Source: a virus
DNA length: 64,000 nt
Strand: one strand, 5' to 3'
Virus record (IMG/VR): IMGVR_UViG_3300029349_000001
Coordinates: 32,001-96,000 of that record
A program made the translations under genes and the position numbers. Numbering within the stretch: the stretch's first letter is position 1; every line of letters begins with the position of its first letter. Positions 3,001 through 60,798 of this stretch are shown here, piece after piece. Below the pieces are notes generated by a model. The model saw only the letters and a program-made list of their open reading frames with translations. It searched no databases and was not told the DNA's origin.

Positions 3001-3016
3001 GCCAGATGAAAACTAG
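5..3016 (+). CDS. Tail tape-measure-like protein, C-terminal part (probably begins upstream of the window)
   Basis: C-terminal ASGGIVY...RGTDTVPAMLTPGEFVVNR...LLRAIN motif typical of tape-measure C-termini; Ala/Gln/Leu-rich helical composition; frame is open to the window edge. Confidence 0.7.
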   Translation: MPKTEISGDSIKVDGKNIIIDSLLDPKSRPDLSPQVDVTSTADGYKQLITVSNLSKKTGNLHGLYTKNNINTIHANSDDMGGIGNIYGINAQNRDLSGYPYTRIVAGLDSMRYAGLGGFSSMDIAGDLASQTTNYDNSMFDGDMAQIKQRLSNAQIVKANLERTKELLSGGNVKLQESETSEANRNYVNKLQQLLSGSVFKATFSEAEIKGKDSVKPPITLYNLDGNDWDSRVDVLDKDASVTKGTYAGKKGSSWIPVGSRTMGVGTVPDQFSIQKWFPWVGSGFNSTIFDDLKNKYNAQNPNNVKVTPGSYADDIMAFNYKNIEGPMFDANKKMTKNKYKFTTVSLDQNTVNEKLNPFRDLVDQNLLPQDPEKSEIYANTPGDLIGMIKNLVNNTILRTQQNTLSFGSSIKRLSAADKAIADLDFAQQTKDNAYLLNSIAPGFQYEAKLYGDELRKRIAQQKQDQQAAAGEKGIANKANLQDLPENPLLLAEQARGIVSKVLSPVSGILSAYNIKLSPIRVASQIAPYGNYLLQAQQFFGDAVTQKFKNNKKGIDQRLWNVWGALGASGKVFEKLGAGDKQGLQTLLGSAASTLDSTDLGDMVVRYGQLLAAQGATFAGTAGLSTPKDVLKKEIGDNDKQTIEGIFKKAQTEEATVARDGRLTVNKTEGRNLPTNLLDLGKKIVNPYSTFQPGDRSPLFDILLKGLETHDNKGVKRNVNEKLVTNLKALKQFYASFLDPIVSGGVAPNDDMIRQISDQYPTMNAILQVLTNGEYGAMPDAKKMQELAAAKKARMEAEKKASGGIVYASTGTLVDYKPRGTDTVPAMLTPGEFVVNRQSTSKHLPLLRAINSNRYQTGGVVSPNYYEAGALASGAAKTVGAIAGMVGIKLDTKKLETDITSAFDSGSQQLKSQLQGIFGLKSEDRNALISFGTSMVRLVSQLAQVSIPPEIKFSMQPVQVNITGAQGLTEAAQSLIDGAIKKAFDDFLSINDLQGTYKAPDEN

Positions 3017-5811: not shown

Positions 5812-8800
5812 ATGCCTACTCCGCCACCGGCCCCAATTACCATTAAATTTGATTTTAGACACTATATACCCAACCAGGATTTATCTGCTGGTACTGTGCA
5901 ATTGGACGGAATGGATTGTGCTGACAAGAGTTTTGTAGCCACCATATTGGCCGAAAATCTCATGCCAGGACATAGTTATAGAACCACATATGAACTGGTC
6001 AATCCTCAAACTGATCAAAAGGTCTTCAATCCAGCTTCTTCTGATTTATATGCTTCTTATGGATCTCAAAATTTTGTTACGTCCGTTGTATTGCCTAAAG
6101 GACCAGATAAAGAATCTAATAGTTATGTACTCAAGGCCACTATTACAGATCTAACAGAAGGATCTACGGCAACAGCCTCTACTCAGATAAATCTTATCTG
6201 TGGCATAAAGAGACAGGTTTTTGAGGTAGAGCTTTTAGATCCAGATTCGCTCACATCTAGAGATGATGTTGTGGACTTGGGAGATTGTACTAACGGTTTT
6301 CCACTCGTTGGTGTTATTAAAAATGCTTTAATCGGCAAAGAATACGACTATCAACTATATGACAATCCAGCAGGAAGTATAATTTTTGAAAAACAAACAG
6401 GAAATGTTTATGCTGGAGATATTAATCAAAATTTTAATTCTAAAGTAGCCCTATCAGGCTATCCGTACGTATTCGTTCATGCTAAGGTTACAGAAAAAGA
6501 TACTGGAATATCTAGATTCAGTGATCCTTTACTATTAAAATGTTTTCAAACAGATCCGTGTGATGTTGCATTACCAACCGGAATAGATTGTTCTGTTGGA
6601 GCATACACATTAAAGAGATGTTCTTCTAGGGGTTTGACCACAGCTAGTTTATCTTCATTTTATGGAGGCACGGGTTTCTCTATTGGAGACAAGCTAACCA
6701 CTACTGGAGGCGGTGGCTACGGAGCAGAAATTGAAATTTTATTTGGTGGTATTACCGTAGATACGTTTAGTTCATTTCATGGTGGTTCCGGCTTCAACAT
6801 CAATGATCTTATTGAAGTTACTGGCGGTGGTGGCTCGGGAGGTTTAATTAAGATCATATCTGGTGGACTTACCAACGCCTCTATAGATTCTTTAAATGGC
6901 TGTTCAGGATTTAAGATTGGAGATTTGTTAACTACAGTAGGTGGAGGCGGCAAAGACGCACTAATAACAGTTACGGCCACAGGAGTAAACGGCAGTATTT
7001 CCGGATATTCAGTAACCCATTCGGGTTATGGATTTATAGATGCTCCAAGCGGTGTTATAGCTATTAATGGTAACGGCGCTTGTGCTAGTGCGTCTTTCAA
7101 TGATGATAATTTTACTATACCACCAGCAGGAGGCATTACTTCTGATTCATTGAATTTGGAGGGTGGTACCGGATATAATATTGGAGAAATACTAAACATA
7201 GTAGGTGGCGGCGGCACCGGAGCACAAGTTAAAATACTTTCCGGTTCTCTAACAGTAGCATCTATTAATAGTCTTGGTGGAGGAACAGGCTATTCTGTTG
7301 GCGATTATCTAACCACAGTAGGAGGAGGCGGTTCAGATGTTGTAATAAGAGTTACTGCTGTCGGCCCCAATGGTGAAATCTTAGCTTGGGAAATACTTAA
7401 TCCAGGATACGGGTTTACATCTGCTCCAACAGGATTAGTAGCTCTTACTGGATCTGGTACTGGAGCTACATTAGTGGCTAATGCCAATAATTTTGCGATT
7501 ACATCTGAAGGATCTATTACCGAAGATAGTATTATTAATTTAATCGGATCTGGCTCAGGATATCAAGTTGGAGATGAACTAATTGTTGTGGGCGGTGGAG
7601 GATCTGGTGCCGTAATCGTGATTACAGAAGTAAGTCCAACAGGCGCTATACTTGCTTATATTATTAAGAACCCCGGCTCTGGATATGATAGCATTCCTCA
7701 AATTGTGGACGAGAACCAGGTTCCTATTGTGCCACAACCATCTTGGAATATCTCTGAGTTTACAGACAATAGTTATGTTATTATTAATGCTGGTTCCGGA
7801 TACCAAAATCCGCCTACTGCTATCACATCAACTAACGGCGATGGCACAGGAGCAGAATTTGATGTTGATGTTACAAGATATACAGATCCAGCATTTATTG
7901 TTGTTAATACTGGTAGCGGATATACTTCAGCACCTACTGGCATAATAGTAAGGAGCGGAGATGGTTCTGGTGTTACAGCAACCTTTAACGATGACAGTTT
8001 CACTATTCCTTGTGCTGGTGGTATTACTTATGAATCTATCTCTGGACTTATTGGTAAGTCTTCTTTCTTAAATGGCGAAGAACTAGTTGTTGATGGAGGA
8101 GAGGGATCTGGAGGAAGAATTAAAGTTACAGCAGTAAATAACGGTGCTATAGTATCGTTTGTAGTCCTAAACGCTGGTTGTGGCTATACTGATGTTCCTA
8201 CTCTAAAGAGACTAAACGGCTTAGCTATAAATGGAGTGACTTTCGACGTAGAAGATTTTACCGATTTGGCTGTTATTGTTACCAATCCGGGTGCCGGTTT
8301 CTCTGATACTCCAACAGGCATAGAAGTATTGACCGGAGGAGGCAGCGTAGAAGATATATTTGTTGTATTTGATCCAGAGAAATTTATTGAAATAGTAGGA
8401 CCAATTCCTACTCCTCCAGTGCCAACTCCCACGGTAACCCCATCTCAGTCTCCACCAGTTCTATGCAACGACCTACAAACAGCTGGTGGACAAAACATTA
8501 TTTCTAATACTAAAACAATAAATATTGCACCAAGCGGACAAAACTTTATTGTGGTAGAAAATACAGAAGGACTTAATAAATATTCAATTGTAAGTTTAAA
8601 CAATGTACCTGCTGGAACCTATGTTGTAGATGTAACCAATTGGTTTGCTAATTTTGATAATCGTGTTCTCTATAAGAAAATTACTCTAAGTAATGCCATC
8701 ACTGGCGAAGTACCAGTAAATACCCCTGTTACTATTTATTCTACAGATATTAGATTAATTAAAGTTCCTTATTGGCCCGGCAATATGACATTCTCATACG

Positions 8801-9147
8801 ACGCCTATAGCGTACCAGACAGATTCAGAGTATTTGCAGTACCTATGGACTCTAGATTACCAGACGTACTATTGTTTGATAGTGGCTATAGAGGAAGTGA
8901 AGGTTGTGGATATGCCAACAATTTAAGTGGTCTTGGTTCCGGTAGTGTTCAACTGATGAAGCCGGATGGTTCTACTTTTATCAAGGTTGTGGTAGAAGCC
9001 CCATGCGAAGGAACGGCGTGGGAATATGCTCTATCGTGTCCACAAAGAGTATTTACTACTGTAACTTCTACACCTACACCCACACCAACTTTGACCCCAA
9101 GTATTACTCCTACAATTACCGTAACTCCATCTAGATCTAGCCTATAA
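5812..9147 (+). CDS. Gly-rich repeat tail/baseplate-like protein
   Basis: Two Cys-capped modules; repeated GxGyxVGDxLxxxGGGGSGA and NPGSGYxxAP units as in large-phage baseplate/fibre proteins; C-terminal YDAYSVPDRF...DSGYRG module; PT tracts. Confidence 0.6.
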   Translation: MPTPPPAPITIKFDFRHYIPNQDLSAGTVQLDGMDCADKSFVATILAENLMPGHSYRTTYELVNPQTDQKVFNPASSDLYASYGSQNFVTSVVLPKGPDKESNSYVLKATITDLTEGSTATASTQINLICGIKRQVFEVELLDPDSLTSRDDVVDLGDCTNGFPLVGVIKNALIGKEYDYQLYDNPAGSIIFEKQTGNVYAGDINQNFNSKVALSGYPYVFVHAKVTEKDTGISRFSDPLLLKCFQTDPCDVALPTGIDCSVGAYTLKRCSSRGLTTASLSSFYGGTGFSIGDKLTTTGGGGYGAEIEILFGGITVDTFSSFHGGSGFNINDLIEVTGGGGSGGLIKIISGGLTNASIDSLNGCSGFKIGDLLTTVGGGGKDALITVTATGVNGSISGYSVTHSGYGFIDAPSGVIAINGNGACASASFNDDNFTIPPAGGITSDSLNLEGGTGYNIGEILNIVGGGGTGAQVKILSGSLTVASINSLGGGTGYSVGDYLTTVGGGGSDVVIRVTAVGPNGEILAWEILNPGYGFTSAPTGLVALTGSGTGATLVANANNFAITSEGSITEDSIINLIGSGSGYQVGDELIVVGGGGSGAVIVITEVSPTGAILAYIIKNPGSGYDSIPQIVDENQVPIVPQPSWNISEFTDNSYVIINAGSGYQNPPTAITSTNGDGTGAEFDVDVTRYTDPAFIVVNTGSGYTSAPTGIIVRSGDGSGVTATFNDDSFTIPCAGGITYESISGLIGKSSFLNGEELVVDGGEGSGGRIKVTAVNNGAIVSFVVLNAGCGYTDVPTLKRLNGLAINGVTFDVEDFTDLAVIVTNPGAGFSDTPTGIEVLTGGGSVEDIFVVFDPEKFIEIVGPIPTPPVPTPTVTPSQSPPVLCNDLQTAGGQNIISNTKTINIAPSGQNFIVVENTEGLNKYSIVSLNNVPAGTYVVDVTNWFANFDNRVLYKKITLSNAITGEVPVNTPVTIYSTDIRLIKVPYWPGNMTFSYDAYSVPDRFRVFAVPMDSRLPDVLLFDSGYRGSEGCGYANNLSGLGSGSVQLMKPDGSTFIKVVVEAPCEGTAWEYALSCPQRVFTTVTSTPTPTPTLTPSITPTITVTPSRSSL

Positions 9148-11584: not shown

Positions 11585-14500
11585 ATGCCAATAACTATAA
11601 ATAAGCAATATCAATTTATTAAATTTTTAGGATCTTCTAATCTAAGTCTCAATAGTTTATCTGGTTCTATTACTAATCAAATTGCTATAATTTATGGTAT
11701 TTCCGCAGATGGTTCTTCATATTTATCATGGAGCAACAGTGCTTTTTCTAGTTTACAAAATCTAGAAACTTATAAGACATATCTAATTGTTAGCAATAGT
11801 GCAAATCCTAATTATACTCTATATTCAGGCAGTGAAGTAGTCGATGCGAGCACGAGTACAGAGATTACTACCACTAGATCAATGGAAACATATAGGGGCG
11901 CAACACCTCTGACACTAAGTAGTGCTAGTTTTAAAAATAATATTTTGTTGATATATGGTATTTCTAGTGATGGCTTAGGTTTCGTATCTTATAGTCCATC
12001 GTCTCAATTTAATAGTTTAACAACACTACAACCAGATGTTGGATATGAGTTTGTTACCAACGGCACTCCTTTTACACTGTGGTTGGCTCCTGGAGCATCT
12101 CCCACCCCAACGCCAACCCTCACAGCAACACCAACACTAACGCCGACCAATACCCCAACAAGAACTCTTACCCCAACACCTACTTTAACAGCAACTGTTA
12201 CTGCCACACCAACGCTCACACCATCATTAACGCAAACCAATACGCCCACACGCACACTCACTCCTACTCCTACGCTTTCTCCCACTCCAACGAGTAGTCC
12301 TCTATTAAGTCCTAATTTTGCTAATTATAATAATCAATCTATTTTTAAAGGACTAGCTAATAGTAGTACTGTTGGTACTAACGGAGCAAAAAGCTCGTAT
12401 GGTTGCCATGACATGAGTGGAAATGTTTCGGAGTGGGTTGGTCAAGCCACCGATGTTTGTTTAAGAGGCGGTAATTTTTCGTCTTCTTCAAATGATATTT
12501 CAAAATACGGTAGATTAGTAGTAGCCGCTACCGTATCTGATCCAGCCACGGGCTTTAGAATTGCTACGTCTGGCACAAATGGCGACCACCTATCACTAGG
12601 TAATTTCATTACTATTGGAAATACTAATAACGTATCTGATCCTGATACGAGTTATGGCGCTGTGGCATATTCTTATCGCATATCTAAATTTCAGGTTACC
12701 AATGATGAATATTGTGCTTTCTTAAATAGTCAAGCAAAATTAGATACAAAAGCATTATATAATTCTTTAATGAGTAACGATGCGGAAAGAGGAGGTATAT
12801 TGAGAGGTGGATCACCAGGATCCTATTACTATGTAAGCAAAATGCATCATGGTAATAAACCAGTTAATTATGTTAATTGGATAGATTGTGCCAGATACTG
12901 TAATTGGATACATAATGGAGCAACAGACACTAGCGATACAGAAAATGGAGCATATACCATCAATCCGTTGGGAGCTGTGGCAAGAAACACAGGCGCTAAA
13001 TACTGGATACCTCTAGAAAATGAATGGTATAAGGCAGCTTTCTATGATCCAGCCTCTACCAGTTACTATTTATATAGCACACAAAATAATAGCACACCAA
13101 CAGCAGCATCTCTTAACACTAATGGAGATGGGCCATTTTCTCCATCTTCAGCTTTTGATGATGGACAAATACTTATTGCTGATACAACCAAGATGGTGGT
13201 ACTAGATACTAATAATCCTAGTAGTAATATTGTAAATATATCAGATATTAATACCACTCCACATAGTCTAACAGTTGGTCCGTTTAGAGATGATGCTTTT
13301 ATCTCTAATTCCGCCGGTCTTATAGATGTGGTGAGCCTAACTGCACAAAATCCTAGTGGCTGGGCCAAGGTTTTATCTTTAGCGGCTGGATCTGACGCTA
13401 GAAAAATATTAGTTAGTTCTGACGGATCAAGATTATATTGTTTAAATTATAATGATAGAACTATTACCGTATATGACCTACTCGGATCCCCTAGGTATGC
13501 TACAAGACTCATTATGGATTATCGCGGTTCGGGCATAGTATACGACTTTTGCAATGGAGAAAATGCAGACACAATCTATGTAGCCTGCTCTAACGGATAT
13601 GTAGTCAGAACCACTATTACTGGATCTTCTTATAATAATAATATTTATTATTACTATCATGGTTTTATTAACCAGCCAGTATCAATGACTTTCTTACAAA
13701 ATCAAATATATGTAGCCTTGGTTGATGGTGCTACTACTATTAAAACCCGCAATATAAATAATGGCGCAGAAGCGACTATTAGTATTGTTGGATTAAGTAA
13801 TTTTGGACAGGCTTCTACAGTGACTGTTGTTAGATTGGCTTTATACAATGATCCTTATAACAAATATTTAGTTTTGACAGGAGAAATATCTAATCTTAAT
13901 AGAGGAGTTATATATTATTATAATCCCCTATATAACAGACAAATGTCTATCAGTTATACCGATACTGTATCAACAATCGGTATTTATACCAATATTGCAC
14001 AAAATAAAGACTATGCATATTTATTTGCCGGTAATAGATTGCTAACTTTTGATTCAACTAATAAATATTTTAGAACCTCGGTCGTTGTATCTCCCACTTT
14101 CAATAGTTCTATTATTAGAGATGTTGAGTTTAGAAGCAATACCGCGATACCAGCACCGTCTCCTTCTCCAACACCAACTAATACTACTACTCCAACCAGA
14201 ACACCCACTAATACGCCAACAGTCACCCCAACCAACACTGTTACCCCTACATTCACTTCTACCCCAACACCAACTCCAACACAAGAACCTCCTGTAGTAT
14301 ATTCTAACTCTATGGTGGCGGCTGTGGGTGCTAACGATGTGGGCCAATTAGGAGACGGCACTTATGGTTCATCCAAGGTCTTTAAGCATATAACTGCCCC
14401 ATCAGGAAATGTATTTAATTATAATGTAAGAGCTAGTTCTTTAGGTAGTCATAATCTCATTATTGATTCCAGCAATAGACTTTGGGGATGGGGTAATAAC

Positions 14501-15388
14501 GATAGGGGTCAAGTTGGTCCGTCAGCATGGACTAGTGTGGCTCCTTCTGGTAGTGGTTTGAATACCAATCCTTCTACTATGGCATATGATACAGTTAGTA
14601 ATAGGTATGCTATATTTGGTCTTTCAAGTAATGTTGTTAATGTTTCGACTAATGGTACCGTTTGGACAAGTGCAACTATCGGAACAGCTCCTCCATCTTT
14701 AAATTGGACAACATCTATCGGATGGAATAACAATACTTCCACAGGTGGAGGATCTCCACAAACTAATCAATACTCTATCTTTGCATTAGCTAATAACTCC
14801 AATATTCTTGCAGCATATAGCAATTCAAATAATACCTGGGTATCACCCAGCTTGTCTGTTACAAGAAATTGGACCGCTATGGTACAATCAAGAAATAAGA
14901 TTTTAGCTTTTGCTAGCAATAGCAACAATGTATTTACTATAGTTCCCGGAGCAAATAATACTATTACAACATCTGACGTAAGCCTAGGCTTAGGGTCTTT
15001 AAATGTGTTCTGGAAAACTGCGGCTGTTAATAGTAATGGCTCTACTATACTAGCAATTGGGTACGATTCAAGAACCATTGTTCGTAGTACTGATAGTGGC
15101 GCTTCTTGGTCGCAGGCTGGTGTTTCTTTACCTTTAGTTGCCAAATGGGAGAAGATTATTTGTTCTAACAACAGATGGATCTTAATCGCTTCTGATCAGG
15201 ATAGTGTATATACTAGTGATGATAATGGATCTAATTGGACAGCTCGCTCAACCAGCAGCACCAACCCGTCTTGGACTCAAATATCAGTCTATAATAATAC
15301 CATTATTTTAGTTGGATTAAATAATAACTATTACTTAACAAGTACTGATAATGGCACATCTTGGAAAAAACGATTCTTAGGCGTATAA
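11585..15388 (+). CDS. Multidomain adhesin/fibre: permuted FGE-sulfatase-like domain, beta-propeller, two RCC1 repeats, BNR-like repeats
   Basis: DMSGNVSEW/LRGG/GFRIA and VTNDEY/ENEWYKAA motifs; GANDVGQLG and GNNDRGQVG; S.D.G..W repeats; PT tracts. Confidence 0.7.
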   Translation: MPITINKQYQFIKFLGSSNLSLNSLSGSITNQIAIIYGISADGSSYLSWSNSAFSSLQNLETYKTYLIVSNSANPNYTLYSGSEVVDASTSTEITTTRSMETYRGATPLTLSSASFKNNILLIYGISSDGLGFVSYSPSSQFNSLTTLQPDVGYEFVTNGTPFTLWLAPGASPTPTPTLTATPTLTPTNTPTRTLTPTPTLTATVTATPTLTPSLTQTNTPTRTLTPTPTLSPTPTSSPLLSPNFANYNNQSIFKGLANSSTVGTNGAKSSYGCHDMSGNVSEWVGQATDVCLRGGNFSSSSNDISKYGRLVVAATVSDPATGFRIATSGTNGDHLSLGNFITIGNTNNVSDPDTSYGAVAYSYRISKFQVTNDEYCAFLNSQAKLDTKALYNSLMSNDAERGGILRGGSPGSYYYVSKMHHGNKPVNYVNWIDCARYCNWIHNGATDTSDTENGAYTINPLGAVARNTGAKYWIPLENEWYKAAFYDPASTSYYLYSTQNNSTPTAASLNTNGDGPFSPSSAFDDGQILIADTTKMVVLDTNNPSSNIVNISDINTTPHSLTVGPFRDDAFISNSAGLIDVVSLTAQNPSGWAKVLSLAAGSDARKILVSSDGSRLYCLNYNDRTITVYDLLGSPRYATRLIMDYRGSGIVYDFCNGENADTIYVACSNGYVVRTTITGSSYNNNIYYYYHGFINQPVSMTFLQNQIYVALVDGATTIKTRNINNGAEATISIVGLSNFGQASTVTVVRLALYNDPYNKYLVLTGEISNLNRGVIYYYNPLYNRQMSISYTDTVSTIGIYTNIAQNKDYAYLFAGNRLLTFDSTNKYFRTSVVVSPTFNSSIIRDVEFRSNTAIPAPSPSPTPTNTTTPTRTPTNTPTVTPTNTVTPTFTSTPTPTPTQEPPVVYSNSMVAAVGANDVGQLGDGTYGSSKVFKHITAPSGNVFNYNVRASSLGSHNLIIDSSNRLWGWGNNDRGQVGPSAWTSVAPSGSGLNTNPSTMAYDTVSNRYAIFGLSSNVVNVSTNGTVWTSATIGTAPPSLNWTTSIGWNNNTSTGGGSPQTNQYSIFALANNSNILAAYSNSNNTWVSPSLSVTRNWTAMVQSRNKILAFASNSNNVFTIVPGANNTITTSDVSLGLGSLNVFWKTAAVNSNGSTILAIGYDSRTIVRSTDSGASWSQAGVSLPLVAKWEKIICSNNRWILIASDQDSVYTSDDNGSNWTARSTSSTNPSWTQISVYNNTIILVGLNNNYYLTSTDNGTSWKKRFLGV

Positions 15389-15398
15389 TATAAGTATA
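15380..15398 (+). promoter_or_regulatory. Putative late-promoter motif variant overlapping the stop of 11585
   Basis: GGCGTATAATATAAGTATA followed by AAGGA RBS. Confidence 0.4.
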
Positions 15399-15414
15399 AT
15401 ATCAAGGATACATT

Positions 15415-18400
15415 ATGGCTAATTTTAGAAATCTTATCACAGGAAATGGTATACTTCTAGGACTGTCTGATGATAATCAGATGTATGTTTTAGGGGATAA
15501 TGCTAATAAAAATACAGTATCCAGAATCGGTAATGATGGTCCACTATACGCCGCCGGATGGAAATCAGCATCGGTTAACGCCAAGCATTCCGCAGCTATT
15601 ACCAATAATGGACAACTATATGTATGGGGAGACAACTCCTATGGTCAATTAGGCATAGGAGGATCAGTAGCGTCTTCTATGGATCCTATATTATTAGATA
15701 ATAGTGAATGGCTTAGTGTAAGTTGTGGAGCAAGACATACCGTAGGTATTAAAAAAGATGGATCTTTATGGGGTTGGGGATCTAATCAATTTGGTCAATT
15801 AGGACCAAACGCAGCAACTATACAATATGTACCTTATAGAATATCCGAGCCTTCTTTTAGCAACGTGGCCTTATTGTTGCACCTTAATGGTTTTGCTGGA
15901 TCAACTACGATTTCTGATAGTTCTTTATTATCTAAAAATGTTAAGATTATAGGATCTGGGAGACTATCTTCTACTCAGTCTAGGTTTGGAGGTATATCTT
16001 ATTATTATGGAGATACTGGCAGCAGTGGTATAGATGCCAACGGCTCATATGATGATCTAAAATTTGGTACTGGTGACTTTACAATAGAGGGATACTACTA
16101 CTTAAATAGTAATAGTAGCGACAACTTCTTATATGATACAAGACATCCCTGGAATGCATCAGGAGGATCTTACGCATATGTTACTAGTACTGGCGTACTT
16201 AATGTAGAAGGTCAGACCACTATTATTATGCCAACCAATCGTTGGGTTCATGTGGCTTTTAGTAGACAAAACGGTATATTAAGAACATTTTTTGATGGAG
16301 TATTAGTATATACTCAATCTTCAACCACTAACTACGATTCGGGATACTGCTATATTGGTGCTGCTGCTTACTATCCTGCTGGTGCCGCACCCTTCAGAGG
16401 TTACATAGACGAGGTAAGGGTTACTAAGGGAATTGCTAGATACGTATCAACCTTTACGGCTCCCACAATACCCTTTATGGACTCTAGCGATTCTTATTTA
16501 AAAATTGCTGCTGGTTCCTTCTTTAATTTAGCTATTAAAGCAGATAACACTCTTTGGAGTTGGGGCGATAATTCGTATGGACAATTAGGCACATCTTCTA
16601 CTGTCGCATCTAGACCAACACTTACACAAATTGGTACAGATAATAATTGGGTTGATATAGTATGTGGAGATAGTCATGCTCTAGCAGTTAAGTCCGATGG
16701 CTCTTTATATTCCTGGGGATATAATGCTTTGGGTCAGTGTGGTGTTGGTACTTCTAATGAGAGTTATAATAGTCCTATAGCTGTAACCGGGGTTCACGAT
16801 GGAGCTACTTATCGTCCAATTTTAGGCATTACTTTAGATAATGAAAAAAGAATAGCTTGTGGAAAAAATCACAGCTTTATTATCGCAAGAACAGCACTAG
16901 GAGATAATATCCTATTCGGCACTGGAGATAATAGCAACGCCCAATTAGGCACAGGAAACAATGATTCTAAAACAGTATTTACTGCCGTTGATCTTAGTAG
17001 AAGATTCATCTCTACAGATGCTGGTGTGAATCATAGTTTAGGCAAACTAGACTTACCAGAAAATCAACCAACTCCTAGTCCAACTCCCACACTAACTCCA
17101 ACACCAACAGTTACCGCAACCAATACTCCAACTGTAACACCAACTAGAACCGCTACGCCAACACTAACGGCCACTCCATCTGCAACCCCGGTTGGACCAC
17201 CACCTTCTCCGTCCCCAACTGCTACAGTATCACCCACTCCTTCTTTACCAGCTAGGGCAGGCTTTAATTGGTTTCCTATCAATATTGTTTCCAGAGCTTT
17301 TAATAGTGTAGTATACGGCGCTAAGCTCGATAGATTTATTGCTATGCCGAGAAATGGCAATATTCCAGCCATATCAGAAAATAGTACTGCCACAAGTTGG
17401 ATTGACACAAACTCCTTGCCTTCTAATATGGCTCTGCCAGAAGTTATAGATGCTAGACACTACTTGTTTTCATATGATCCTTCTTCGAGTCCAAGAGCTA
17501 ATGGTAACACGATAGCAATCTCTAAAAATGGGTTCGACTGGATTAACAATACTGTAGTAAGAACAGACTCTAATAGTTATAGTATAGTAAGCGCATCGTC
17601 TTATACTAGTTTGTCTAGTGTTGATGGACACATTGTTGCTGTGGGACCAGTTGCTAATAGTGGTAACAGAACAGCTCTTAGATATAAAAAAATTACAGTT
17701 AAGGATACTGATAATATTTCAGCCAGTATGATCCCAGAGCGAGACTTTGCTCCATTCTTAGATGCAAATAATCGTCCGATCTTAACGATAAATACAGCTA
17801 ATTATAATAATCATGTGGGCAGCGTAACAGATGTAAGATATAATGGTGGTTCTAGCGCATATGGCGCTTTCGATATGACAGGCAACGTAGATGAATGGAC
17901 AGGAACATCTGGTACCGGAGGAACATCATTCTTTACTTTGGGAGGAAACTATACTGCTAGTAATCCATCCAAAGATAATGTGACTACAACACAATCTTCG
18001 TCGTCTTCTATAGGGACAAGAGGTTTTAGACTTGCTAGTGTAACAAATCCAACTAATAATTATAGCACATTTGTGTCTGTTGGAGATATCAACAATGATT
18101 CGGATAACGGTGTGGGTTCTGTTACTTCTAATTATCGTATTGGTACATATCCTGTGACAAATTTGGAATATGTTGAATTTTTAAATGCTGTTCAGCCCAC
18201 CGGCAGCATTAGTGAATTACACAATATTCCCTCCTTAGCTGATAAAGACGTAGGAATTAAATTACCATATACGATATCTAATACTATAGAGAGTAATTCA
18301 ATCTACTCATATGGCATAGCGATTAATCCTAATACCAATAGAGCATATGTATGTAAATACTATGACAGTAGTTTACAAGTTATAGATCTTAATACTTCTA

Positions 18401-20571
18401 CGATTATAGCAACTATTAATGTTGGTAGTCAACCATGGGATGTTATATGTGATCCAGCCAACAATAGAATTTATGTTTCTGTATCCGGCGGCGCAAGAAT
18501 TAGAGTGATTGACGGAACTAATAATACTATTATAGGTAATATTACAACACAGAGTTTTCCACGCTATATGGCATTAGATAGTGCCAACAATAAATTGTAT
18601 GTGTCATTTTCTACGAATAGTTTTAGTGTGATTGATGTTACAACCATTACGACTAATATGTTGGTACAAACAACTTCTTCTGTCATCGGTACTCCATTAG
18701 GTATGGCCGTAGATTCCACTAACAATAGACTATATATTGGGTATTCTGATTCCACAGGGGCGTATATTAGGGTTGTGAATGCTTCTAATATTAATACGAT
18801 TATATCAACCATTTCTTTACAAAGCAATACGTATCCTTTTGATCTAAAGCTGAATAGCGATAGAAGTAGACTTATTGTAGCCGAAAGCAATAGCAAGTCA
18901 TTAACTATTATTAATACTACAACTAATTCTATTATTGCTAGAATACCATTATCAACTACTACAATAGCTGGCTTCTCACTAGATGCACAAAACAAGGCCT
19001 ATATTGCAGGATATGGGGACAATAGTTTAATAATAGTAGATACCAATACCTCAGCTTTGGTTGGAAAGGTTGTATTATCTAATACTAATATTAATCCACA
19101 AGACGTGGCCATTGCTAATAATAAAATATATATAGTTAATTGGGGCGATAGTAAGGTATTTACTGTAGAAGTATCTAATACCTATACGACTATACCAGGA
19201 ATGGAATATAAACCAGTATCTTATATAAATTGGTATAATGCTGCTCGTTATTCTAATTGGTTGTCAAACGGAAAACCTGTTGGAGTACAGTCCTCAACAA
19301 CAACAGAAAATGGCGCATATCAGCTCAATGGAAATACTGGAAATCCCACACTAAATACAACTAATCCCAATACAGGATCTGCTCCGGCTTATTATCTACC
19401 TTCTAGAAATCAATGGTATAAAGCAGCATACTATAAGGGTGGTAATACCAATGCTGGATATTGGCTATACGGAAACTCATCAGATACATTATCTCCAGCA
19501 TATTTATTCGGCAATAGTCTAGAGAATCTACCAGCCGCCAGTAGTGTTGTCAAAGTTAGAAAAGACGGACTAGTGGTGGTTGCTGGACAAGGATTCGTGT
19601 TGATGTCTAACATGGTTCCAAATACTGTACCAAACTGGAATTATTATCCTCTTACACAACTAACTGAACCTACAGACATATTATTTGGGGATAATAACAG
19701 AATCGTTATTCTACAAAGCACACTCGGAGTCGTATCTGCTAATAATAGATACTATTATAGTGACGCTGTAAATTACTCCAATAGTTATCCTTCTGTTAGT
19801 TGGACAATAGGAAATCTGCCCGCGACAACCCTAACTACATCTGTTGGAGCATCCGCTTATGACAATGGTGTGTTTGTGGTCATACCTCTTTCTGCTTCAT
19901 TATCTTCGTCTTCTTTTGTTTCTTCTGATGGTATTAATTGGAATACTATTTCTTCTAGTGTGCTATCTAATAAGATATGGAGAGGCTTAGCTAGTAAGAG
20001 TAATCTATTTGTAGCGGTTGGAGACAATTCACCACTAGCTGCTATTAGCTATAGTGATATCAGAACCACACCAACCCCCACAGCAACGCCCACAGTTACT
20101 CCATCAAATCTAGGTATCGTAATTACACAACAACCGAAAAATGTTGATATAGTTCTCGTGGCAGATAATAATGCTGGAGGTGTCGCGGTCTTTAATGTTA
20201 CCGCTAGTTCTAGATCTCCAATTGCATATCAGTGGTATGAGTCTGTTAGTAATGGGCCGTTTACCGCTATTCCAAATGCTACGCTCAATAGTTTATCTAT
20301 CAATAATATTACTAGTAGTAAGCATGGTAATAGATATTATGTTAAATTAACATCTGGTACTATTGTAGTAGATAGTAGTATCGCAACCCTAAATGTATTC
20401 ACAAATTCACCCATTACTATTCTACAACAACCTAGTAATACCACTGCGGTTAGTGCTGCGGCATCTTTTACCGTATTGGCCACTATCAACTATCCTTCAC
20501 CAACCCCTACAATAACAGCTACTAGTACTCCAACGCCGACCCCAACAGTTACCCCTTCTAGGTCTGTATGA
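15415..20571 (+). CDS. Multidomain adhesin/fibre: RCC1 repeats, LamG, permuted FGE-like domain, YVTN propeller, Ig-like domains
   Basis: Five GxNxx(G/A)Q(L/C)G RCC1 repeats; LamG WVHVAF...GYIDEVRVTKG; YVTN-like NVGSQPWDV...RIYVS; ITQQP/YQW Ig motifs. Confidence 0.72.
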   Translation: MANFRNLITGNGILLGLSDDNQMYVLGDNANKNTVSRIGNDGPLYAAGWKSASVNAKHSAAITNNGQLYVWGDNSYGQLGIGGSVASSMDPILLDNSEWLSVSCGARHTVGIKKDGSLWGWGSNQFGQLGPNAATIQYVPYRISEPSFSNVALLLHLNGFAGSTTISDSSLLSKNVKIIGSGRLSSTQSRFGGISYYYGDTGSSGIDANGSYDDLKFGTGDFTIEGYYYLNSNSSDNFLYDTRHPWNASGGSYAYVTSTGVLNVEGQTTIIMPTNRWVHVAFSRQNGILRTFFDGVLVYTQSSTTNYDSGYCYIGAAAYYPAGAAPFRGYIDEVRVTKGIARYVSTFTAPTIPFMDSSDSYLKIAAGSFFNLAIKADNTLWSWGDNSYGQLGTSSTVASRPTLTQIGTDNNWVDIVCGDSHALAVKSDGSLYSWGYNALGQCGVGTSNESYNSPIAVTGVHDGATYRPILGITLDNEKRIACGKNHSFIIARTALGDNILFGTGDNSNAQLGTGNNDSKTVFTAVDLSRRFISTDAGVNHSLGKLDLPENQPTPSPTPTLTPTPTVTATNTPTVTPTRTATPTLTATPSATPVGPPPSPSPTATVSPTPSLPARAGFNWFPINIVSRAFNSVVYGAKLDRFIAMPRNGNIPAISENSTATSWIDTNSLPSNMALPEVIDARHYLFSYDPSSSPRANGNTIAISKNGFDWINNTVVRTDSNSYSIVSASSYTSLSSVDGHIVAVGPVANSGNRTALRYKKITVKDTDNISASMIPERDFAPFLDANNRPILTINTANYNNHVGSVTDVRYNGGSSAYGAFDMTGNVDEWTGTSGTGGTSFFTLGGNYTASNPSKDNVTTTQSSSSSIGTRGFRLASVTNPTNNYSTFVSVGDINNDSDNGVGSVTSNYRIGTYPVTNLEYVEFLNAVQPTGSISELHNIPSLADKDVGIKLPYTISNTIESNSIYSYGIAINPNTNRAYVCKYYDSSLQVIDLNTSTIIATINVGSQPWDVICDPANNRIYVSVSGGARIRVIDGTNNTIIGNITTQSFPRYMALDSANNKLYVSFSTNSFSVIDVTTITTNMLVQTTSSVIGTPLGMAVDSTNNRLYIGYSDSTGAYIRVVNASNINTIISTISLQSNTYPFDLKLNSDRSRLIVAESNSKSLTIINTTTNSIIARIPLSTTTIAGFSLDAQNKAYIAGYGDNSLIIVDTNTSALVGKVVLSNTNINPQDVAIANNKIYIVNWGDSKVFTVEVSNTYTTIPGMEYKPVSYINWYNAARYSNWLSNGKPVGVQSSTTTENGAYQLNGNTGNPTLNTTNPNTGSAPAYYLPSRNQWYKAAYYKGGNTNAGYWLYGNSSDTLSPAYLFGNSLENLPAASSVVKVRKDGLVVVAGQGFVLMSNMVPNTVPNWNYYPLTQLTEPTDILFGDNNRIVILQSTLGVVSANNRYYYSDAVNYSNSYPSVSWTIGNLPATTLTTSVGASAYDNGVFVVIPLSASLSSSSFVSSDGINWNTISSSVLSNKIWRGLASKSNLFVAVGDNSPLAAISYSDIRTTPTPTATPTVTPSNLGIVITQQPKNVDIVLVADNNAGGVAVFNVTASSRSPIAYQWYESVSNGPFTAIPNATLNSLSINNITSSKHGNRYYVKLTSGTIVVDSSIATLNVFTNSPITILQQPSNTTAVSAAASFTVLATINYPSPTPTITATSTPTPTPTVTPSRSV

Positions 20572-20573
20572 AT

Positions 20574-20591
20574 GGTGTAATTACTAATATA
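20574..20591 (+). promoter_or_regulatory. Putative late-promoter motif
   Basis: GGTGTAATTACTAATATA just after the stop of 15415. Confidence 0.55.
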
Positions 20592-20617
20592 ATTCATTTT
20601 AAATTAAAGGCTAAACT

Positions 20618-23600
20618 ATGGGATTAACATATCAATGGCAAGTATCAACAGATAATACAGCGACAGTATTCGTTGACTTGCAAGACGGTCCATTGGTATC
20701 TGGAACCAAGACTCAAACACTATTATTTAACAATCTAACAGTAGCTGATAATAATAAAAAATATCGCGTAATTATCGGTAGTACAGATTTTAATGTGGCT
20801 CCTGTTGTTAGTGATGCTGCTACTCTTTTCACAGCTCCCTCTATTACTTTAAGTACAATCCCAGATATAGCCACAACAGCGACAACAGCAACATTTTCTG
20901 TTAGCGGAGTAGCTAATACTGGTACTATTAGTTATCAATGGCAAAAAAGAGTACCTTGCGCCCCAACTGCTACAGAACCATGTTTTATTAATTTAGTAGA
21001 TCAAACAGGTTCCGTTAGCGGTGCTCTTACTCCAAATCTTATTTTAACTGGATTAACAGCTGCGGTACATAATAATTCTCAATACCGAGTTGTTGCCAGC
21101 GCACAGTGTTGTGGAACAACCGCCATTACACAATCATCAAATGTCGCAACACTACAAGTTGCCACACAAGGACAAACACTATTTATTACTAAAGACTTAA
21201 CAGATGCAATAATAGCAACAGACAAAACTGCTTCTTTTAATATAGAGATACAAACGACAACAACCAATTCGACACCGGTCCCAGTAACATTCGGATGGCA
21301 AAAATTAGTTGCTGGGAGTTGGGTAAATGTAACTAATAATCAACCGATACAAAGTTCAGTTATTAATCCTACATTATTGCTATACAAACAAACACTAGCT
21401 ATTACTAGTGCTATTGATAGCGAATCTTATAGAGTTGTGGTAAACGATGGAAGGTCATCCGCCACCAGCGCTACCGCAAAGAGTAAGAATCCCGCCACAT
21501 GTACTGATTGTGGAGGTAGTGGTACTGGAGATCCACACTTTTATATAGGCGGGAATTACGGCTTTGATGATAATCCGATTATTAACGGACACAAAGAAAT
21601 TGTAATGCTTTATATAAAAAACAAAAAAGACAATACCGAGCACGTATTAACTTGCAAAAATACTGGAGCTTTCGGCAAGTCTTCTCCATATAACGTAGAA
21701 AGAACTTCATATACACAATTTAAAGATGGTAAAATTGTTGGAGCCAGAGTAGACAACGGAAAAGCAGATATGATGGGTGTGGCAATGATGAACGCCGCTT
21801 CTGGACGTTTTGCTTTTACTTGGTCTGTTCTAAACCCCTCTAATATCCACAAAGCTCAAGACTTAGATATAGTTATTGGTGGTGCGTGGTATTGGATGTG
21901 CAAGTCCCTAATTCAATATCTAAAAAAGAATCCGTCTTTCATGAGTTTAGGATGGCCATATATTGGTTGGATTCATGCTGATGGCATCGGTTTGGGATTG
22001 GCTCCATATAATCTTATCAGAGAGAATTTTGAAATAGATAATTTATATCTTAAAAATAGTGGAAGTGCGAATATTGACGGTCTTTATATAGCTTCTAGCA
22101 AAGATGATAAGAATAGTACTAGATACAATAAAGACAATAGTGCATATTCCATAATTAGAGATCGCGGACTATGGCAAATCAAAACCAGGGTTCTGTCTCC
22201 TATCGCAATGACTAAAATTTCTGATACGCAATTTAGCATCAGCACATCTCGCTATATAGATGCAGAAAGTCTAAGTGTTGGCCTTGGGGTTGGTAGTAGT
22301 GCGGCTGGCGTTGTTGCTGGAAATCCTATCATATCATCTATCTCGTATAAATATCCTGCTCAAGCTATGGCGAGAGAAGATGTAGCGCCTATCACTGCTG
22401 AAATCACCGTAAGTGGTGGGCAGATTCTACAAAGCGGCTCCGTTATTTTTGGATATTTTGTAGACACCACAAACACTAGTAATAGTATTACACTACCTAA
22501 TCTCTTTACAGCTTCAGATATATATATTGGTCAAAAAATTACTATTAGCGGAGCTACATCTGCTAATACTACAATTACTAATATTAACGGGAATATATTA
22601 ACACTAAGTAGTAATTGTACTGCTACTGGTAGGTTCCCACTAGAAATTATTTATGCTGAATCTTTTGAAGACAATACTACTTCTCCAGATTTATCTGGGG
22701 GATGGTTAAAAAATAAAAATATTATTCCAGACATTAAATTATTACCATTATTATCTAGTCCAGAAGGCATATCTAAAATTGCAGAAGATATCACCGCCAA
22801 TCCTCGTTTTTGGCATGAGTTGTCTTTGGCTCTATCGGGCAAGCCTCTAGACGGAACTCCAGTAAATAGTATAGTAGCACAACCCAAAGATACTATCTCT
22901 GTCAATGGAATAGCGTCTTTTACTGTGGTTGCTGAATTGGCCAGTTCCAAATATCAGTGGCAAAAATCCACAGACAACGGAGTGTCTTGGATAGATATAG
23001 CTGGAGCTACTAATGCTACACTTGTAGTTAATGCTATTAAATCTGATAACGGATCGTTGTTCAGAGTAAAAGTTGACACTGTTCTTACCAGTAGTAGTGC
23101 TAAGTTATCTGTTCCATCTACTCTTAGAGTCCAACAAGAACCATCAAATACTAGTGCTATTAATCTACAGGCCGTATTCGGTGTTGTTGCTAGCGGAGTA
23201 CAGCCGATTACATATCAGTGGCAAAAATCCGACGATAATGGCGCAACATTCTCTAATGTGCCAAACAACAATCTACCTACCCTTACCTTGAGTAATCTTA
23301 AAGCTGAAGATGATAATGATCTATATAAAGTTTCTGTGGCCGACGGAGCCGGAGATTCCTATACATCAGCCGCTTATAAGCTCTTTATTAATCCAGTCTT
23401 AAGTATCACATCGCACCCGACTACACAAACAGCATCCGAGGAAGAAACAGCTACTTTTAGTGTTTCTGGCACTTGCAATAACGGGTTGTTTAAACACCAA
23501 TGGGAAGTATCTACCAATAATGGCGTATCATATGCGGCCGTTGGAGAACCTTCTTATTCTGGTAATTTAAATTTAAGTGGTCTCAAGATATATGATGATA

Positions 23601-25291
23601 ATAAGCTGTATAGAGTTAAGCTTATTTCTGATATAAAGAATAACTTTGTTTATTCTAGTGGTGCTAGATTATTGGTACCTAATAGTCTTACAATAGTTAC
23701 TCAGCCAGCAAATACTATATCTTCTAGCGGCAATGCAACATTTTCTGTTGGAGCAAACTCATCTCAGCCACCTCTAAGTTACCAGTGGCAGACACAAGCA
23801 CCACAGTCCAACAATTGGATAGACATAGTTTCTGGTACTGGGTCTACTTTAAATGTAACAGGACTAAGGCTCGTTGACGATAATACTAAATATAGAGTTA
23901 TATTAACAGATCAAAGAGGTTCTGTATATAGTCAACAGGCTATCGTAGACACGACACCCCAAATTTCTATCACTCAAAATATTGCTGGATATACTAGCAA
24001 TAATTATAAGCTTAACTTAACTGTTGTGGCATCTGTTTTGACCACAACACTAGAAAATACTTCTGGTAGTTTGGTATATAGTTGGGAAAAAGCAGATCCA
24101 GGATCCAATTTATTTGCCCCACTTACTGGTATTCCATCTAATCAAAATTACCTATTAGGAGATCTAAAGGTGGCAGATAGTGGAGTAAAGTATAGAGTAA
24201 AATTAAGCCTACCCGGCGCACGAGACCTATACTCCAATACTGCACAAATAGATGTGCCTCCATCAATAACTGTTAATGTCAAAACTCCATTTTTAGCAAA
24301 GACCAACTATCCCAATACGGATATTACTTTATCAATTGATGCGACAACTAAAGTTCCACCACTAAACTATCAATGGCAAAAAGCAAGCACCACAAGTAAT
24401 CTTATTAATTATCAATTCCCTAATAATGATCCTTTCTATGATAGAGTAGGACTATTTATGGAAATGAGTGGTGTTTCTGGCACGAGGGCTTTTGTGGATT
24501 CGACAGACAAAACATATATAATACCGTATAGAGATGATTCGGTATATAATCAATATGCAGATATTAAATTATCAAATTTAGATTTCAAGTCTGCTCCAAC
24601 TAGTGCTAGATTTAATGATATATACAGTCATCTTAGAGTTTTTGATAGTGGCAATAATTTGTATTTTGGTAACAAGAACTTTACTATAGAATATTGGTAC
24701 AAGCCAACTGAGTATTCTGAAATGAGTGTTGTATCTCGAAGAAAGGGTAATGTTTGGCCTGTTTACGGTAATGTGGGCTGGACTTTAAGTAGTACTCGTT
24801 TTAGAGCTAAAATAGGACAGACTTGGAGAGATGATTGGATTGATGATAATGGGAATTTATCTATTATACCAGTGAACGAATGGACACACGTAGCCTTAAC
24901 CCGCTATAATAATACATATCGTTTATTTAGAAATGGAGCTATGGTTGGCAGCTTCTTCAATAACGAGACTTTGGATGAAACATCTGGCCCTCTAGTAATT
25001 GGCACCTCAAGTTCGGTTCAAATTAATAGTACAGAGAATGGTTACAGTTTGGTGGGCTTTTTAGATAATCTAAGAATTACTGTTGGATTGGCTAGATATA
25101 CACAGAACTTTGTTCCAGATACATTAATAGATACAGACTATCAAGTAACCATAGCCAATAATAATTTTACTAATATTCCCAACGCAACAGGAACTACGCT
25201 AAAATTAGAAGGATTAACAAGCAATAATAATCTAGAACAATATAGGGTTGTTCTAACCGATCCTGTTTCGACTGTTATAGTAGAGAATTAA
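20618..25291 (+). CDS. Poly-Ig-like adhesin/fibre with GDPH motif and LamG domain
   Basis: About nine QP...(Y/H)QW(Q/E)...YRV Ig-like repeats; GDPHF; LamG (EWTHVALTR...LDNLRITVGLARY). Confidence 0.7.
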   Translation: MGLTYQWQVSTDNTATVFVDLQDGPLVSGTKTQTLLFNNLTVADNNKKYRVIIGSTDFNVAPVVSDAATLFTAPSITLSTIPDIATTATTATFSVSGVANTGTISYQWQKRVPCAPTATEPCFINLVDQTGSVSGALTPNLILTGLTAAVHNNSQYRVVASAQCCGTTAITQSSNVATLQVATQGQTLFITKDLTDAIIATDKTASFNIEIQTTTTNSTPVPVTFGWQKLVAGSWVNVTNNQPIQSSVINPTLLLYKQTLAITSAIDSESYRVVVNDGRSSATSATAKSKNPATCTDCGGSGTGDPHFYIGGNYGFDDNPIINGHKEIVMLYIKNKKDNTEHVLTCKNTGAFGKSSPYNVERTSYTQFKDGKIVGARVDNGKADMMGVAMMNAASGRFAFTWSVLNPSNIHKAQDLDIVIGGAWYWMCKSLIQYLKKNPSFMSLGWPYIGWIHADGIGLGLAPYNLIRENFEIDNLYLKNSGSANIDGLYIASSKDDKNSTRYNKDNSAYSIIRDRGLWQIKTRVLSPIAMTKISDTQFSISTSRYIDAESLSVGLGVGSSAAGVVAGNPIISSISYKYPAQAMAREDVAPITAEITVSGGQILQSGSVIFGYFVDTTNTSNSITLPNLFTASDIYIGQKITISGATSANTTITNINGNILTLSSNCTATGRFPLEIIYAESFEDNTTSPDLSGGWLKNKNIIPDIKLLPLLSSPEGISKIAEDITANPRFWHELSLALSGKPLDGTPVNSIVAQPKDTISVNGIASFTVVAELASSKYQWQKSTDNGVSWIDIAGATNATLVVNAIKSDNGSLFRVKVDTVLTSSSAKLSVPSTLRVQQEPSNTSAINLQAVFGVVASGVQPITYQWQKSDDNGATFSNVPNNNLPTLTLSNLKAEDDNDLYKVSVADGAGDSYTSAAYKLFINPVLSITSHPTTQTASEEETATFSVSGTCNNGLFKHQWEVSTNNGVSYAAVGEPSYSGNLNLSGLKIYDDNKLYRVKLISDIKNNFVYSSGARLLVPNSLTIVTQPANTISSSGNATFSVGANSSQPPLSYQWQTQAPQSNNWIDIVSGTGSTLNVTGLRLVDDNTKYRVILTDQRGSVYSQQAIVDTTPQISITQNIAGYTSNNYKLNLTVVASVLTTTLENTSGSLVYSWEKADPGSNLFAPLTGIPSNQNYLLGDLKVADSGVKYRVKLSLPGARDLYSNTAQIDVPPSITVNVKTPFLAKTNYPNTDITLSIDATTKVPPLNYQWQKASTTSNLINYQFPNNDPFYDRVGLFMEMSGVSGTRAFVDSTDKTYIIPYRDDSVYNQYADIKLSNLDFKSAPTSARFNDIYSHLRVFDSGNNLYFGNKNFTIEYWYKPTEYSEMSVVSRRKGNVWPVYGNVGWTLSSTRFRAKIGQTWRDDWIDDNGNLSIIPVNEWTHVALTRYNNTYRLFRNGAMVGSFFNNETLDETSGPLVIGTSSSVQINSTENGYSLVGFLDNLRITVGLARYTQNFVPDTLIDTDYQVTIANNNFTNIPNATGTTLKLEGLTSNNNLEQYRVVLTDPVSTVIVEN

Positions 25292-25295
25292 TCAC

Positions 25296-58273: not shown

Positions 58274-58301
58274 ATTATATGAATCGGGCCTGTGGTGTCA
58301 A
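58274..58301 (-). promoter_or_regulatory. Sigma70-type promoter for ssb
   Basis: TTGACA (58301-58296), 16-nt spacer, TATAAT (58279-58274) on the minus strand. Confidence 0.75.
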
Positions 58302-59920: not shown

Positions 59921-59925
59921 ACAAT

Positions 59926-60621: not shown

Positions 60622-60796
60622 TTACTTGTACCGTTGTATCCTCTGTAAAAAATGACTTAACTGACGAGTTATTTACTTCTTGAGCATTGATAGACTTGCA
60701 GCAACTTACCCTTACTGTTTCTATCTTAACATATTCCATTCCATTGACAAAAAATCTATCATTAACACCAAGTTCATTAAATTTCTTATCTACCAT
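60614..60796 (-). CDS. 60-aa hypothetical protein
   Basis: Fills the gap between dnaE-N and the exonuclease; GGAG RBS. Confidence 0.65.
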   Translation of the reverse strand: MVDKKFNELGVNDRFFVNGMEYVKIETVRVSCCKSINAQEVNNSSVKSFFTEDTTVQVNA

Positions 60797-60798
60797 GA

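Follow-up and report, generated by a model that had tools for sequence, protein, structure and literature searches.

The window analysed here, a stretch of 64,000 nucleotides (nt) from an uncultured large phage (positions 32,001 to 96,000 of IMG/VR record IMGVR_UViG_3300029349_000001), contains two neighbouring, putative giant fibre genes, the products of which are designated P0001 and P0002 (Table 1). Our analysis suggests, with a probability of roughly 0.6, that the C-terminal end of P0001 and the N-terminal end of P0002 form two interlocked seven-bladed propellers, each of which would be built from both chains. The RCC1-like ring would receive its closing hairpin and first blade from P0001 (1.5 blades, two motifs) and five blades plus the inner half of the last blade from P0002 (5.5 blades, five motifs), with a LamG domain inserted in the P0002 part. 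The second ring would consist of six Asp-box-like blades of P0001 and, probably, a seventh blade formed by P0002 residues 1-42. If the two proteins are read as one chain, the Asp-box-like ring, with the gene border inside it, would be nested between RCC1 blades 1 and 2. Co-folding of both rings would act as a snap-fastener, joining two separate polypeptides head to tail, without a covalent bond, in a long fibre or adhesin organised like beads on a string.

RCC1 motifs and ring pieces encoded by the two genes

The motif G-x-N-x-x-G-Q-(L/V/C)-G, which is characteristic of RCC1 repeats, is present exactly seven times in the window, and a search of all six frames of the 64 kb yielded no further copy. 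Near its end, the P0001 gene encodes two of the seven, GANDVGQLG (residue 915) and GNNDRGQVG (residue 970); the remaining five are encoded in the first part of the P0002 gene (GDNSYGQLG at residue 72, GSNQFGQLG at 122, GDNSYGQLG at 384, GYNALGQCG at 435 and GDNSNAQLG at 504), where the series closes with AGVNHSLGKL and is followed by a Pro/Thr linker. A preliminary description of this DNA, made from the letters alone, had quoted these seven motifs and divided them two and five between the genes; each was found where it had been placed, and nowhere else in the window. That description had also read the intervening repeats as BNR-like. In the first blade of P0002, to which that reading extended, residues 27-35 (GDNANKNTV) occupy a sixth, degenerate RCC1 motif position.

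A scan with hidden Markov models (HMMs) for RCC1 repeats, proposed at the same time, identified RCC1 in P0002 and a short RCC1-like stretch in P0001. P0002 exceeded the Pfam cut-offs for WD40_RLD (PF25390; 197.8 bits versus 150), RCC1 (PF00415; 144.5 versus 21.7) and RCC1_2 (PF13540; 141.9 versus 22), and its residues 361-542 matched positions 197-362 of the 363 positions of the WD40_RLD profile. The RCC1-like domain of P0002 is found by Pfam in two pieces, which flank a Laminin_G_3 insert (PF13385; 47.4 bits, cut-off 27.6; residues 213-336), and the modelled structure of residues about 145-354 matched lectin-like domains with Z scores of about 18-19. The domain order of P0001 is an FGE-sulfatase-like domain, a propeller, a Pro/Thr linker and the RCC1/Asp-box-like module. 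In this module, residues 911-996 matched positions 2-77 of the WD40_RLD profile; RCC1_2 alone passed its threshold (23.5, cut-off 22), the WD40_RLD score of 31.8 being below 150. When tested with an HMM of the P0002 RCC1 blades, the P0001 RCC1 blade scored 29-39 bits, and true members scored 28.7-58.9 bits in leave-one-out comparisons.

The RCC1 stretch of P0001 is followed by BNR/YCF48-like repeats that remained below threshold in Pfam (PSII_BNR, PF14870, 20.3 versus 27; BNR, PF02012, 15.7 versus 27), and for this reason we refer to these blades as Asp-box-like. The S-x-D-x-G-x-T-W turn between strands 3 and 4 is clear in the last three of them (STDSGASW, SDDNGSNW and STDNGTSW) and weak or absent in the first three.

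The strands of an RCC1 blade are named here a ('v.cG'), b ('H..al'), c ('lw.wG.N..GQLG') and d (the strand after the GQLG loop). In human RCC1 the strand order is c0 d0 (a b c d) x6 a7 b7, and the ring is closed by pairing of c0-d0 with a7-b7. The same order is found within single chains of phage proteins in L004 and L006; the RCC1 phage proteins of L004-L006 are distant, have another architecture, and were used only as examples of the canonical single-chain repeat order. In the window, by comparison, the repeats and the closing hairpin do not lie on one chain, as the hairpin and one blade are found in P0001.

Single-chain models made with AlphaFold2 (AF2) were consistent with this division. 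The model of P0002 residues 1-550 (predicted local distance difference test score, pLDDT, 85) contained 26 RCC1 strands, or 6.5 blades, running from a1 through d6 and then a7 and b7, with the LamG domain between d3 and a4; the four strands in the first 50 residues had pLDDT values of 52-67. This model superimposed on seven-bladed RCC1-like domains with a Z score of about 41 and a root-mean-square deviation (rmsd) of 1.8-2.0 Å over 314-318 residues, and the wider set of matches (UVR8, the RCC1-like domains (RLDs) of HERC2, and RCC1) gave Z scores of 37-42 and rmsd values of 1.8-2.6 Å over 312-318 residues. However, the matched part was limited to residues 66-420 in human RCC1 and to 14-348 in UVR8, leaving one closing c-d hairpin without a counterpart, which indicates a seven-fold ring that lacks one c-d hairpin. 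The preliminary description had stated that a closed propeller formed by P0002 alone would speak against a shared ring. The model goes half of this way: it adopts a seven-fold ring, but one of 6.5 blades, with no closing hairpin and with a first blade of low confidence.

In the AF2 model of P0001 residues 894-1267, six confident Asp-box-like blades with 24-25 strands were formed by residues 103-371 of the modelled segment (block pLDDT 62-92, mostly above 75). The piece c0 d0 a1 b1 c1 d1, segment residues 1-92, had a pLDDT below 50 when modelled alone. Together, the two ends account for 32 RCC1-type and 24 Asp-box-like strands, a total of 56, which equals two rings of 28. A profile search of the sequences in the PDB confirmed RCC1 relatives; slippage of the repeats in register hid any answer on ring closure in that search.

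Predicted complex of the two chain ends

The preliminary description had suggested predicting the complex of the two chain ends. Modelled together, the last 374 residues of P0001 and the first 550 of P0002 were predicted to bind each other, with interaction prediction scores from aligned errors (ipSAE) of 0.80, 0.81 and 0.82 in three runs; all three controls scored 0.00, so that 0.81 stands against 0.00 for the best control. The runs yielded 357-370 contacts, of which at least 92% were shared, and the partner pLDDT was at least 86. Of 80 solved complexes, 58 came up to the ipSAE mark, as did 2 of 110 mismatched pairs; since our own alignments were used here, these counts apply only roughly.

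The residue pairs with the lowest predicted error joined P0002 residues 539-544 (b7, NHSLGK) to P0001 segment residues 18-23 (c0, VAAVGA), and the GQLG loop of P0002 blade 6 (residues 508-512) was likewise among the lowest-error partners of c0. This c0-b7 pairing corresponds to the canonical closure of RCC1, here predicted to occur between two chains and seen in the two-chain model only. By this model, the P0001 c0-d0 hairpin would close the last blade of the P0002 RCC1 ring in trans.

The predicted interface extends well beyond these strands. On P0002 it includes residues 1-17, 21-28 and 30-42 at the N-terminus, all four strands of blade 2 (45-59, 61, 64, 71-73 and 87-91), the a-b turns of blades 3-6, and all of residues 531-547, including the innermost strand of the half blade (531-536); the LamG domain lies outside it. 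In P0001 (segment numbering), c0-d0 (16-46) and nearly every residue of the RCC1 blade (53-94) belong to it. The first Asp-box-like blade contributes its strands a and b (101-108; 113, 115 and 117), and the last Asp-box-like blade its strands a, b and d (338-356 and 368-374). Only the inner strands of neighbouring blades touch one another in a propeller. Because P0002 blade 2 and strand a7 both touch P0001, the P0001 RCC1 blade would be placed between them, that is, between the last blade and the second blade of P0002 in the RCC1 ring. Similarly, because P0002 residues 1-42 touch one face of the first and of the last Asp-box-like blades, these residues would be located between those two.

Thus, a reciprocal exchange appears to be the only layout that explains the whole set of predicted interface residues. 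The contact lists fit a single ring containing the 2+5 motif-bearing blades, with P0002 residues 1-42 as an additional Asp-box-like blade, and in this respect the shared propeller that had been proposed from the motif count is supported by the modelling. Two refinements of that proposal are suggested by the same models, namely that blades would pass in both directions and that the upstream hairpin would complete the shared blade. We also considered an eight-bladed mixed ring of 6.5 plus 1.5 blades. It was set aside, as P0002 blade 2 would not touch P0001 in such a ring and the model fits seven-fold geometry at an rmsd of 1.8-2.0 Å.

The gene border, its conservation and alternative explanations

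At the border, P0001 ends with ...TSTDNGTSWKKRFLGV followed by the stop codon, and P0002 begins with MANFRNLITGNGILLGLSD. In the window the repeat register continues across the stop, as the preliminary description had stated. The downstream gene has its own translation signals, with AAGGA at 15404-15408 and an ATG in a different frame from P0001. A duplicated sequence had been pointed out in the 26-nt gap along with the ribosome-binding site. Both are present, the duplicate being found at 15383-15391 and 15394-15402 as GTATAATAT AA GTATAATAT and overlapping the stop codon. However, the window contains 4 copies of this 9-mer, a chance frequency (3.2 expected), and the orthologous spacers lack it. 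A scan of the window for sigma-70 promoters was not above shuffled sequences (51 found, 41.5 expected). On these three grounds, the duplicate was rejected as a promoter or hopping signal.

The split between the two genes is kept in seven related contigs of uncultured phages; related contigs are 65-230 kb in size. The P0002 orthologues (1717-2199 amino acids) are 51-86% identical to P0002 over the N-terminal 550 residues, and a database protein, P0003, is 99% identical; all of these share the start Met and begin with M-A/V-N-F/M-R/K. Positions M1, N3, I8, T9, G10 and N11 of P0002 are invariant among the orthologues. In L001, L002, L003, L009, L020 and L021, the gene directly upstream of the P0002 orthologue ends in the same RCC1/Asp-box-like module. 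The orthologous spacers are 11-47 nt long, with frame offsets of 0, 1 and 2, and an AGGA-like site lies a few nt before each ATG. In L001, reading on in frame past the first stop meets a second one, and the upstream proteins of L020 and L021 continue beyond their last blade with a short Pro/Thr tail. In L019, a tblastn search located the module inside a protein of 2421 amino acids, two genes upstream of the P0002 orthologue; P0130 has the same build, with an internal module. After the module, the L019 protein carries a GNGDFDS (DUF642-like) domain and then an Ig-like one, and a gene for a protein of 1147 amino acids with a different six-repeat propeller (NIGIYD...GPAH repeats) separates the module gene from the P0002 orthologue (L019:1-2501 and L019:2546-5989).

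The upstream module and the downstream ring co-occur in all seven related loci, adjacent or not. In a profile search of 1.84 billion representative proteins, no fusion of the module to the downstream ring was found; the whole module was present only in P0125, P0126 and P0127, where it is C-terminal, and in P0130. As judged from these gene arrangements, P0001 and P0002 appear to be separate products that always occur together and that need not be encoded side by side. Their conservation as separate genes and their constant co-occurrence speak against recoding or a faulty assembly, and in favour of an interaction in trans. In this fibre family, domains are commonly nested at blade borders: LamG lies inside the RCC1 ring, and in P0125 (1552 amino acids) a whole additional canonical Asp-box propeller (...TSxDGxxWT...; about residues 1040-1390) is found between the first two Asp-box-like blades.

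Several observations weigh against the interlocked arrangement. In the AF2 monomer model of P0002, the RCC1 ring includes the first blade of P0002 itself, with low confidence. With the blade HMMs, P0002 residues 1-45 gave an ambiguous result, 4-15 bits as RCC1 and 0.4-5.2 bits as Asp-box-like, the Asp-box-like HMM scoring weakly even on blades 2 and 3 of its own class. The ring to which each border blade belongs was deduced from the lists of interface residues. The complex score expresses how confident the model is in itself, and pieces of a well-known fold tend to score well through their likeness to solved single-chain RCC1 structures. With the tail in L020 and L021 and the extra domains in L019, the repeat register is not continuous over the stop in every relative. 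Finally, the orthologue alignments are shallow, with 7-8 rows.

The first two of these observations, the placement of the P0002 first blade and its higher score as RCC1, would be expected if the hairpin alone were exchanged. In that case P0001 c0-d0 would cross over and close a P0002 ring that keeps its own degenerate first blade, the P0001 RCC1 blade and the six Asp-box-like blades would make a seven-bladed ring of their own, and the gene border would be a domain border. The strongest predicted contacts are exactly the c0-b7 strand pairing, the P0002 model superimposes well on seven-bladed domains, and the strand count is likewise 28+28. However, exchange of the hairpin alone leaves unexplained the inter-chain contacts of P0002 residues 49-54, in the innermost strand of blade 2, and 531-536, as well as the contacts of P0002 residues 1-17 and those of the first and last Asp-box-like blades, each on one face. 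It would also mix the blade types in both rings, whereas with the 2+5 layout all seven canonical motifs come together in a single ring. We consider it unlikely.

It is also conceivable, though improbable in our view, that the split is a relic of gene fission. An ancestral gene with nested domains would have been cut in two, and its products would now fold separately and not bind through these parts, P0002 as an open ring of 6.5 blades and P0001 as an irregular ring of about eight. Both single-chain models are indeed ring-like (predicted template modelling scores of 0.76-0.77), the P0001 segment model best resembles eight-bladed propellers (Z score 22.7, 314 residues aligned), and the two genes are non-adjacent in L019. 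Yet the orphan pieces, which are predicted poorly alone, are the best conserved: in the upstream module, 48% of the columns are invariant in the RCC1 blade, the most conserved part, and 33% in the other orphan piece, as compared to 15-25% in the Asp-box-like blades. Both parts persist together in every related locus, even where they are non-adjacent, the complex prediction passes with clean controls, and at two more junctions of the gene row domains are likewise split, a feature that is conserved.

The idea that the two reading frames yield a single polypeptide, the break being an assembly or sequencing error or else bridged by read-through, frameshifting or ribosome hopping, is largely refuted. 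The register does continue over the stop in the window, and the duplicated GTATAATAT resembles take-off and landing sites. However, seven independent assemblies share the break, and each has an AGGA-like site, an ATG and one of the three frame offsets noted above; a hop from the first GTA to the second meets TAA again; and the 9-mer is unconserved in the orthologues. In L019 a whole other gene lies between the two, and a linker tail extends beyond the last blade in L020 and L021.

The putative fibre gene row and comparison with known systems

The window covers the structural and replication region of the phage. Giant open reading frames (ORFs) follow one another on the plus strand from 11585 to 49027, downstream of genes for tape-measure-like and baseplate or virion proteins, and replication genes are found on the minus strand (Table 1). 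The giant proteins consist of lectin-like and adhesin-like domains (FGE-sulfatase-like, LamG, Ig-like and propellers) strung on Pro/Thr linkers; from gene position and composition, we infer that they are fibre or adhesin proteins. Searches with the DNA and with the tape-measure protein found no match among cultured phages. Identity of the DnaE-like protein to the listed phages does not exceed about 35%, so that no cultured phage is close and no annotated relative was available.

Table 1. Coordinates of features in the 64,000-nt window.
Feature	Position	Strand	Basis
Tape-measure-like protein	5-3016		
Baseplate or virion protein	5812-9147		
Upstream fibre gene P0001, 1267 amino acids	11585..15388	+	ORF list, translation, Pfam; orthologues in same position in L001, L002, L003, L009, L020, L021
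Orphan RCC1 hairpin c0-d0, P0001 residues 910-939, MVAAVGANDVGQLG...KHITAP	14312..14401	+	Start of Pfam RLD profile
Full RCC1 blade, P0001 residues 946-987, with GNNDRGQVG	14420..14545	+	
Six Asp-box-like (BNR-like) blades, P0001 residues 992-1267	14558..15385	+	AF2 strands, Pfam below threshold, turns
TAA stop and 26-nt spacer, two GTATAATAT copies, AAGGA 6 nt 5' of ATG	15386..15414	+	Sequence, pattern search
Downstream fibre gene P0002, 1718 amino acids	15415..20571	+	ORF list, translation; orthologues share start Met
Putative degenerate four-strand blade, P0002 residues 1-42	15415..15540	+	Monomer model, interface, conservation
RCC1 blades 2-3, P0002 residues 46-146	15550..15852	+	Pfam RCC1 and RCC1_2, AF2 strands, structure alignment to seven-bladed RCC1-like domains
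Laminin_G_3 (concanavalin-like) insert between RCC1 blades 3 and 4	15862..16479	+	Pfam PF13385, structural matches
RCC1 blades 4-6 and half blade a7-b7, P0002 residues 358-546, end AGVNHSLGKL	16486..17052	+	Pfam, AF2, interface
Split DnaE-type polymerase, exonuclease and PD-(D/E)XK nuclease		minus	

The minus-strand DNA polymerase III alpha subunit (DnaE-type) is split over two genes (58298-62676), with the PHP domain and polymerase core at 60799-62676 and the fingers/HhH/OB part at 58298-59920; a gene for an RNase T-like exonuclease (59926-60621) sits between the two. The FGE-sulfatase-like domain is found as two separated Pfam stretches in both P0001 and P0002 (12311-13131 and 17260-20065). 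The two stretches of P0002 flank a YVTN/WD40-like propeller (about residues 960-1250), in keeping with a nested, permuted arrangement.

Two further junctions of the gene row also divide domains. At 20571/20618 (20413-20830), P0002 ends with strands A-B only of an Ig-like domain (PITILQQPSNTTAVSAAASFTVLATIN) and a Pro/Thr tail, and the next protein starts with MGLTYQWQVSTD, at strand C (YQWQ). The YQWQ start is kept in L001, L002, L019, L020 and L021, and the A-B ending of the P0002-type protein in four of five orthologous loci, the exception being L019, where the protein ends in a LamG-like stretch. At 25291/25296 (25230-25340), a protein of 1557 amino acids ends with ...EQYRVVLTDPVSTVIVEN (YRVVLTD), after strand F of an Ig-like domain with a LamG insert, and the following protein begins with MTQIYTSNTVLVKA (MTQIYTSNT), a strand-G-like piece; both ends are conserved in the five orthologous loci examined. 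We tentatively suggest that, in a family of uncultured large phages, a fibre of about 6000 residues is assembled from four consecutive gene products, in which every joint would be a domain split between neighbours: an interlocked pair of seven-bladed propellers at the first joint, and at the next two, Ig-like domains cut after A-B and before G. Such joints would also work between the products of non-adjacent genes, as in L019. If so, they would represent a general snap-fastener principle for giant modular adhesins assembled in gene order.

The proposed joint resembles RCC1-like domains (human RCC1, UVR8 and the RLDs of HERC2) in its repeat motif, in its fold (Z about 41) and, in the predicted complex, in closure of the ring by its first and last strands. 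It differs in that the closing hairpin and first blade are encoded on another polypeptide. Another propeller would, in addition, be nested within the ring, along with a LamG domain. The setting here is a phage fibre, whereas the known domains belong to a nucleotide-exchange factor or a photoreceptor.

Natural propeller blades are almost always found on one chain, and engineered propeller fragments have been assembled as homo-oligomers, hetero-oligomers not being obtained (PMC6805158). Those engineered rings resemble the proposed joint in that several chains can make one ring, and differ from it in that a natural pair of different proteins would be involved here. In ribosome assembly, blade 14 of Utp4 is completed in trans by Utp8 (PMC5456268).

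Completion of a propeller in trans is established for coat and pore proteins as well. Sec13 and Seh1 are open six-bladed propellers that are completed by an insertion blade of Nup145C, Sec31, Sec16 or Nup85. As in these proteins, strands of a partner are predicted here to complete an incomplete ring, and the completed ring would serve as an assembly joint. In contrast to the one-way gift of one blade in eukaryotic WD40 proteins, the exchange between the products of neighbouring phage genes is apparently reciprocal, with 1.5 blades given one way. The likeness to Sec13 would be one of working, not of family membership, and there is no homology. The propellers known to be completed in trans all come from eukaryotes, where they serve in coats, pores or ribosome assembly, and in each of them the donation goes one way; we found no description in the open-access literature of an RCC1 propeller shared between phage fibre proteins.

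In chaperone-usher pili, fibre subunits are joined head to tail by donor-strand complementation, one subunit supplying the strand missing from the next. Here too, missing beta strands would be supplied by a neighbouring subunit, and the next two junctions of the gene row split Ig-like domains in that very manner. The pilus joint involves a single Ig strand, similar subunits and the help of a chaperone, whereas several strands or whole blades would be exchanged here between two different giant proteins. If the proposed arrangement is correct, two mutually completed rings would be a new way of joining virion proteins. The odd places at which giant fibre genes are cut would be explained, 'truncated' domains could be annotated as interfaces and not as errors, and the two ends would constitute a natural pair of split-propeller tags. 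As modelled, the P0001/P0002 joint would belong with the propellers completed in trans, and what would be new is a reciprocal exchange in a phage fibre.

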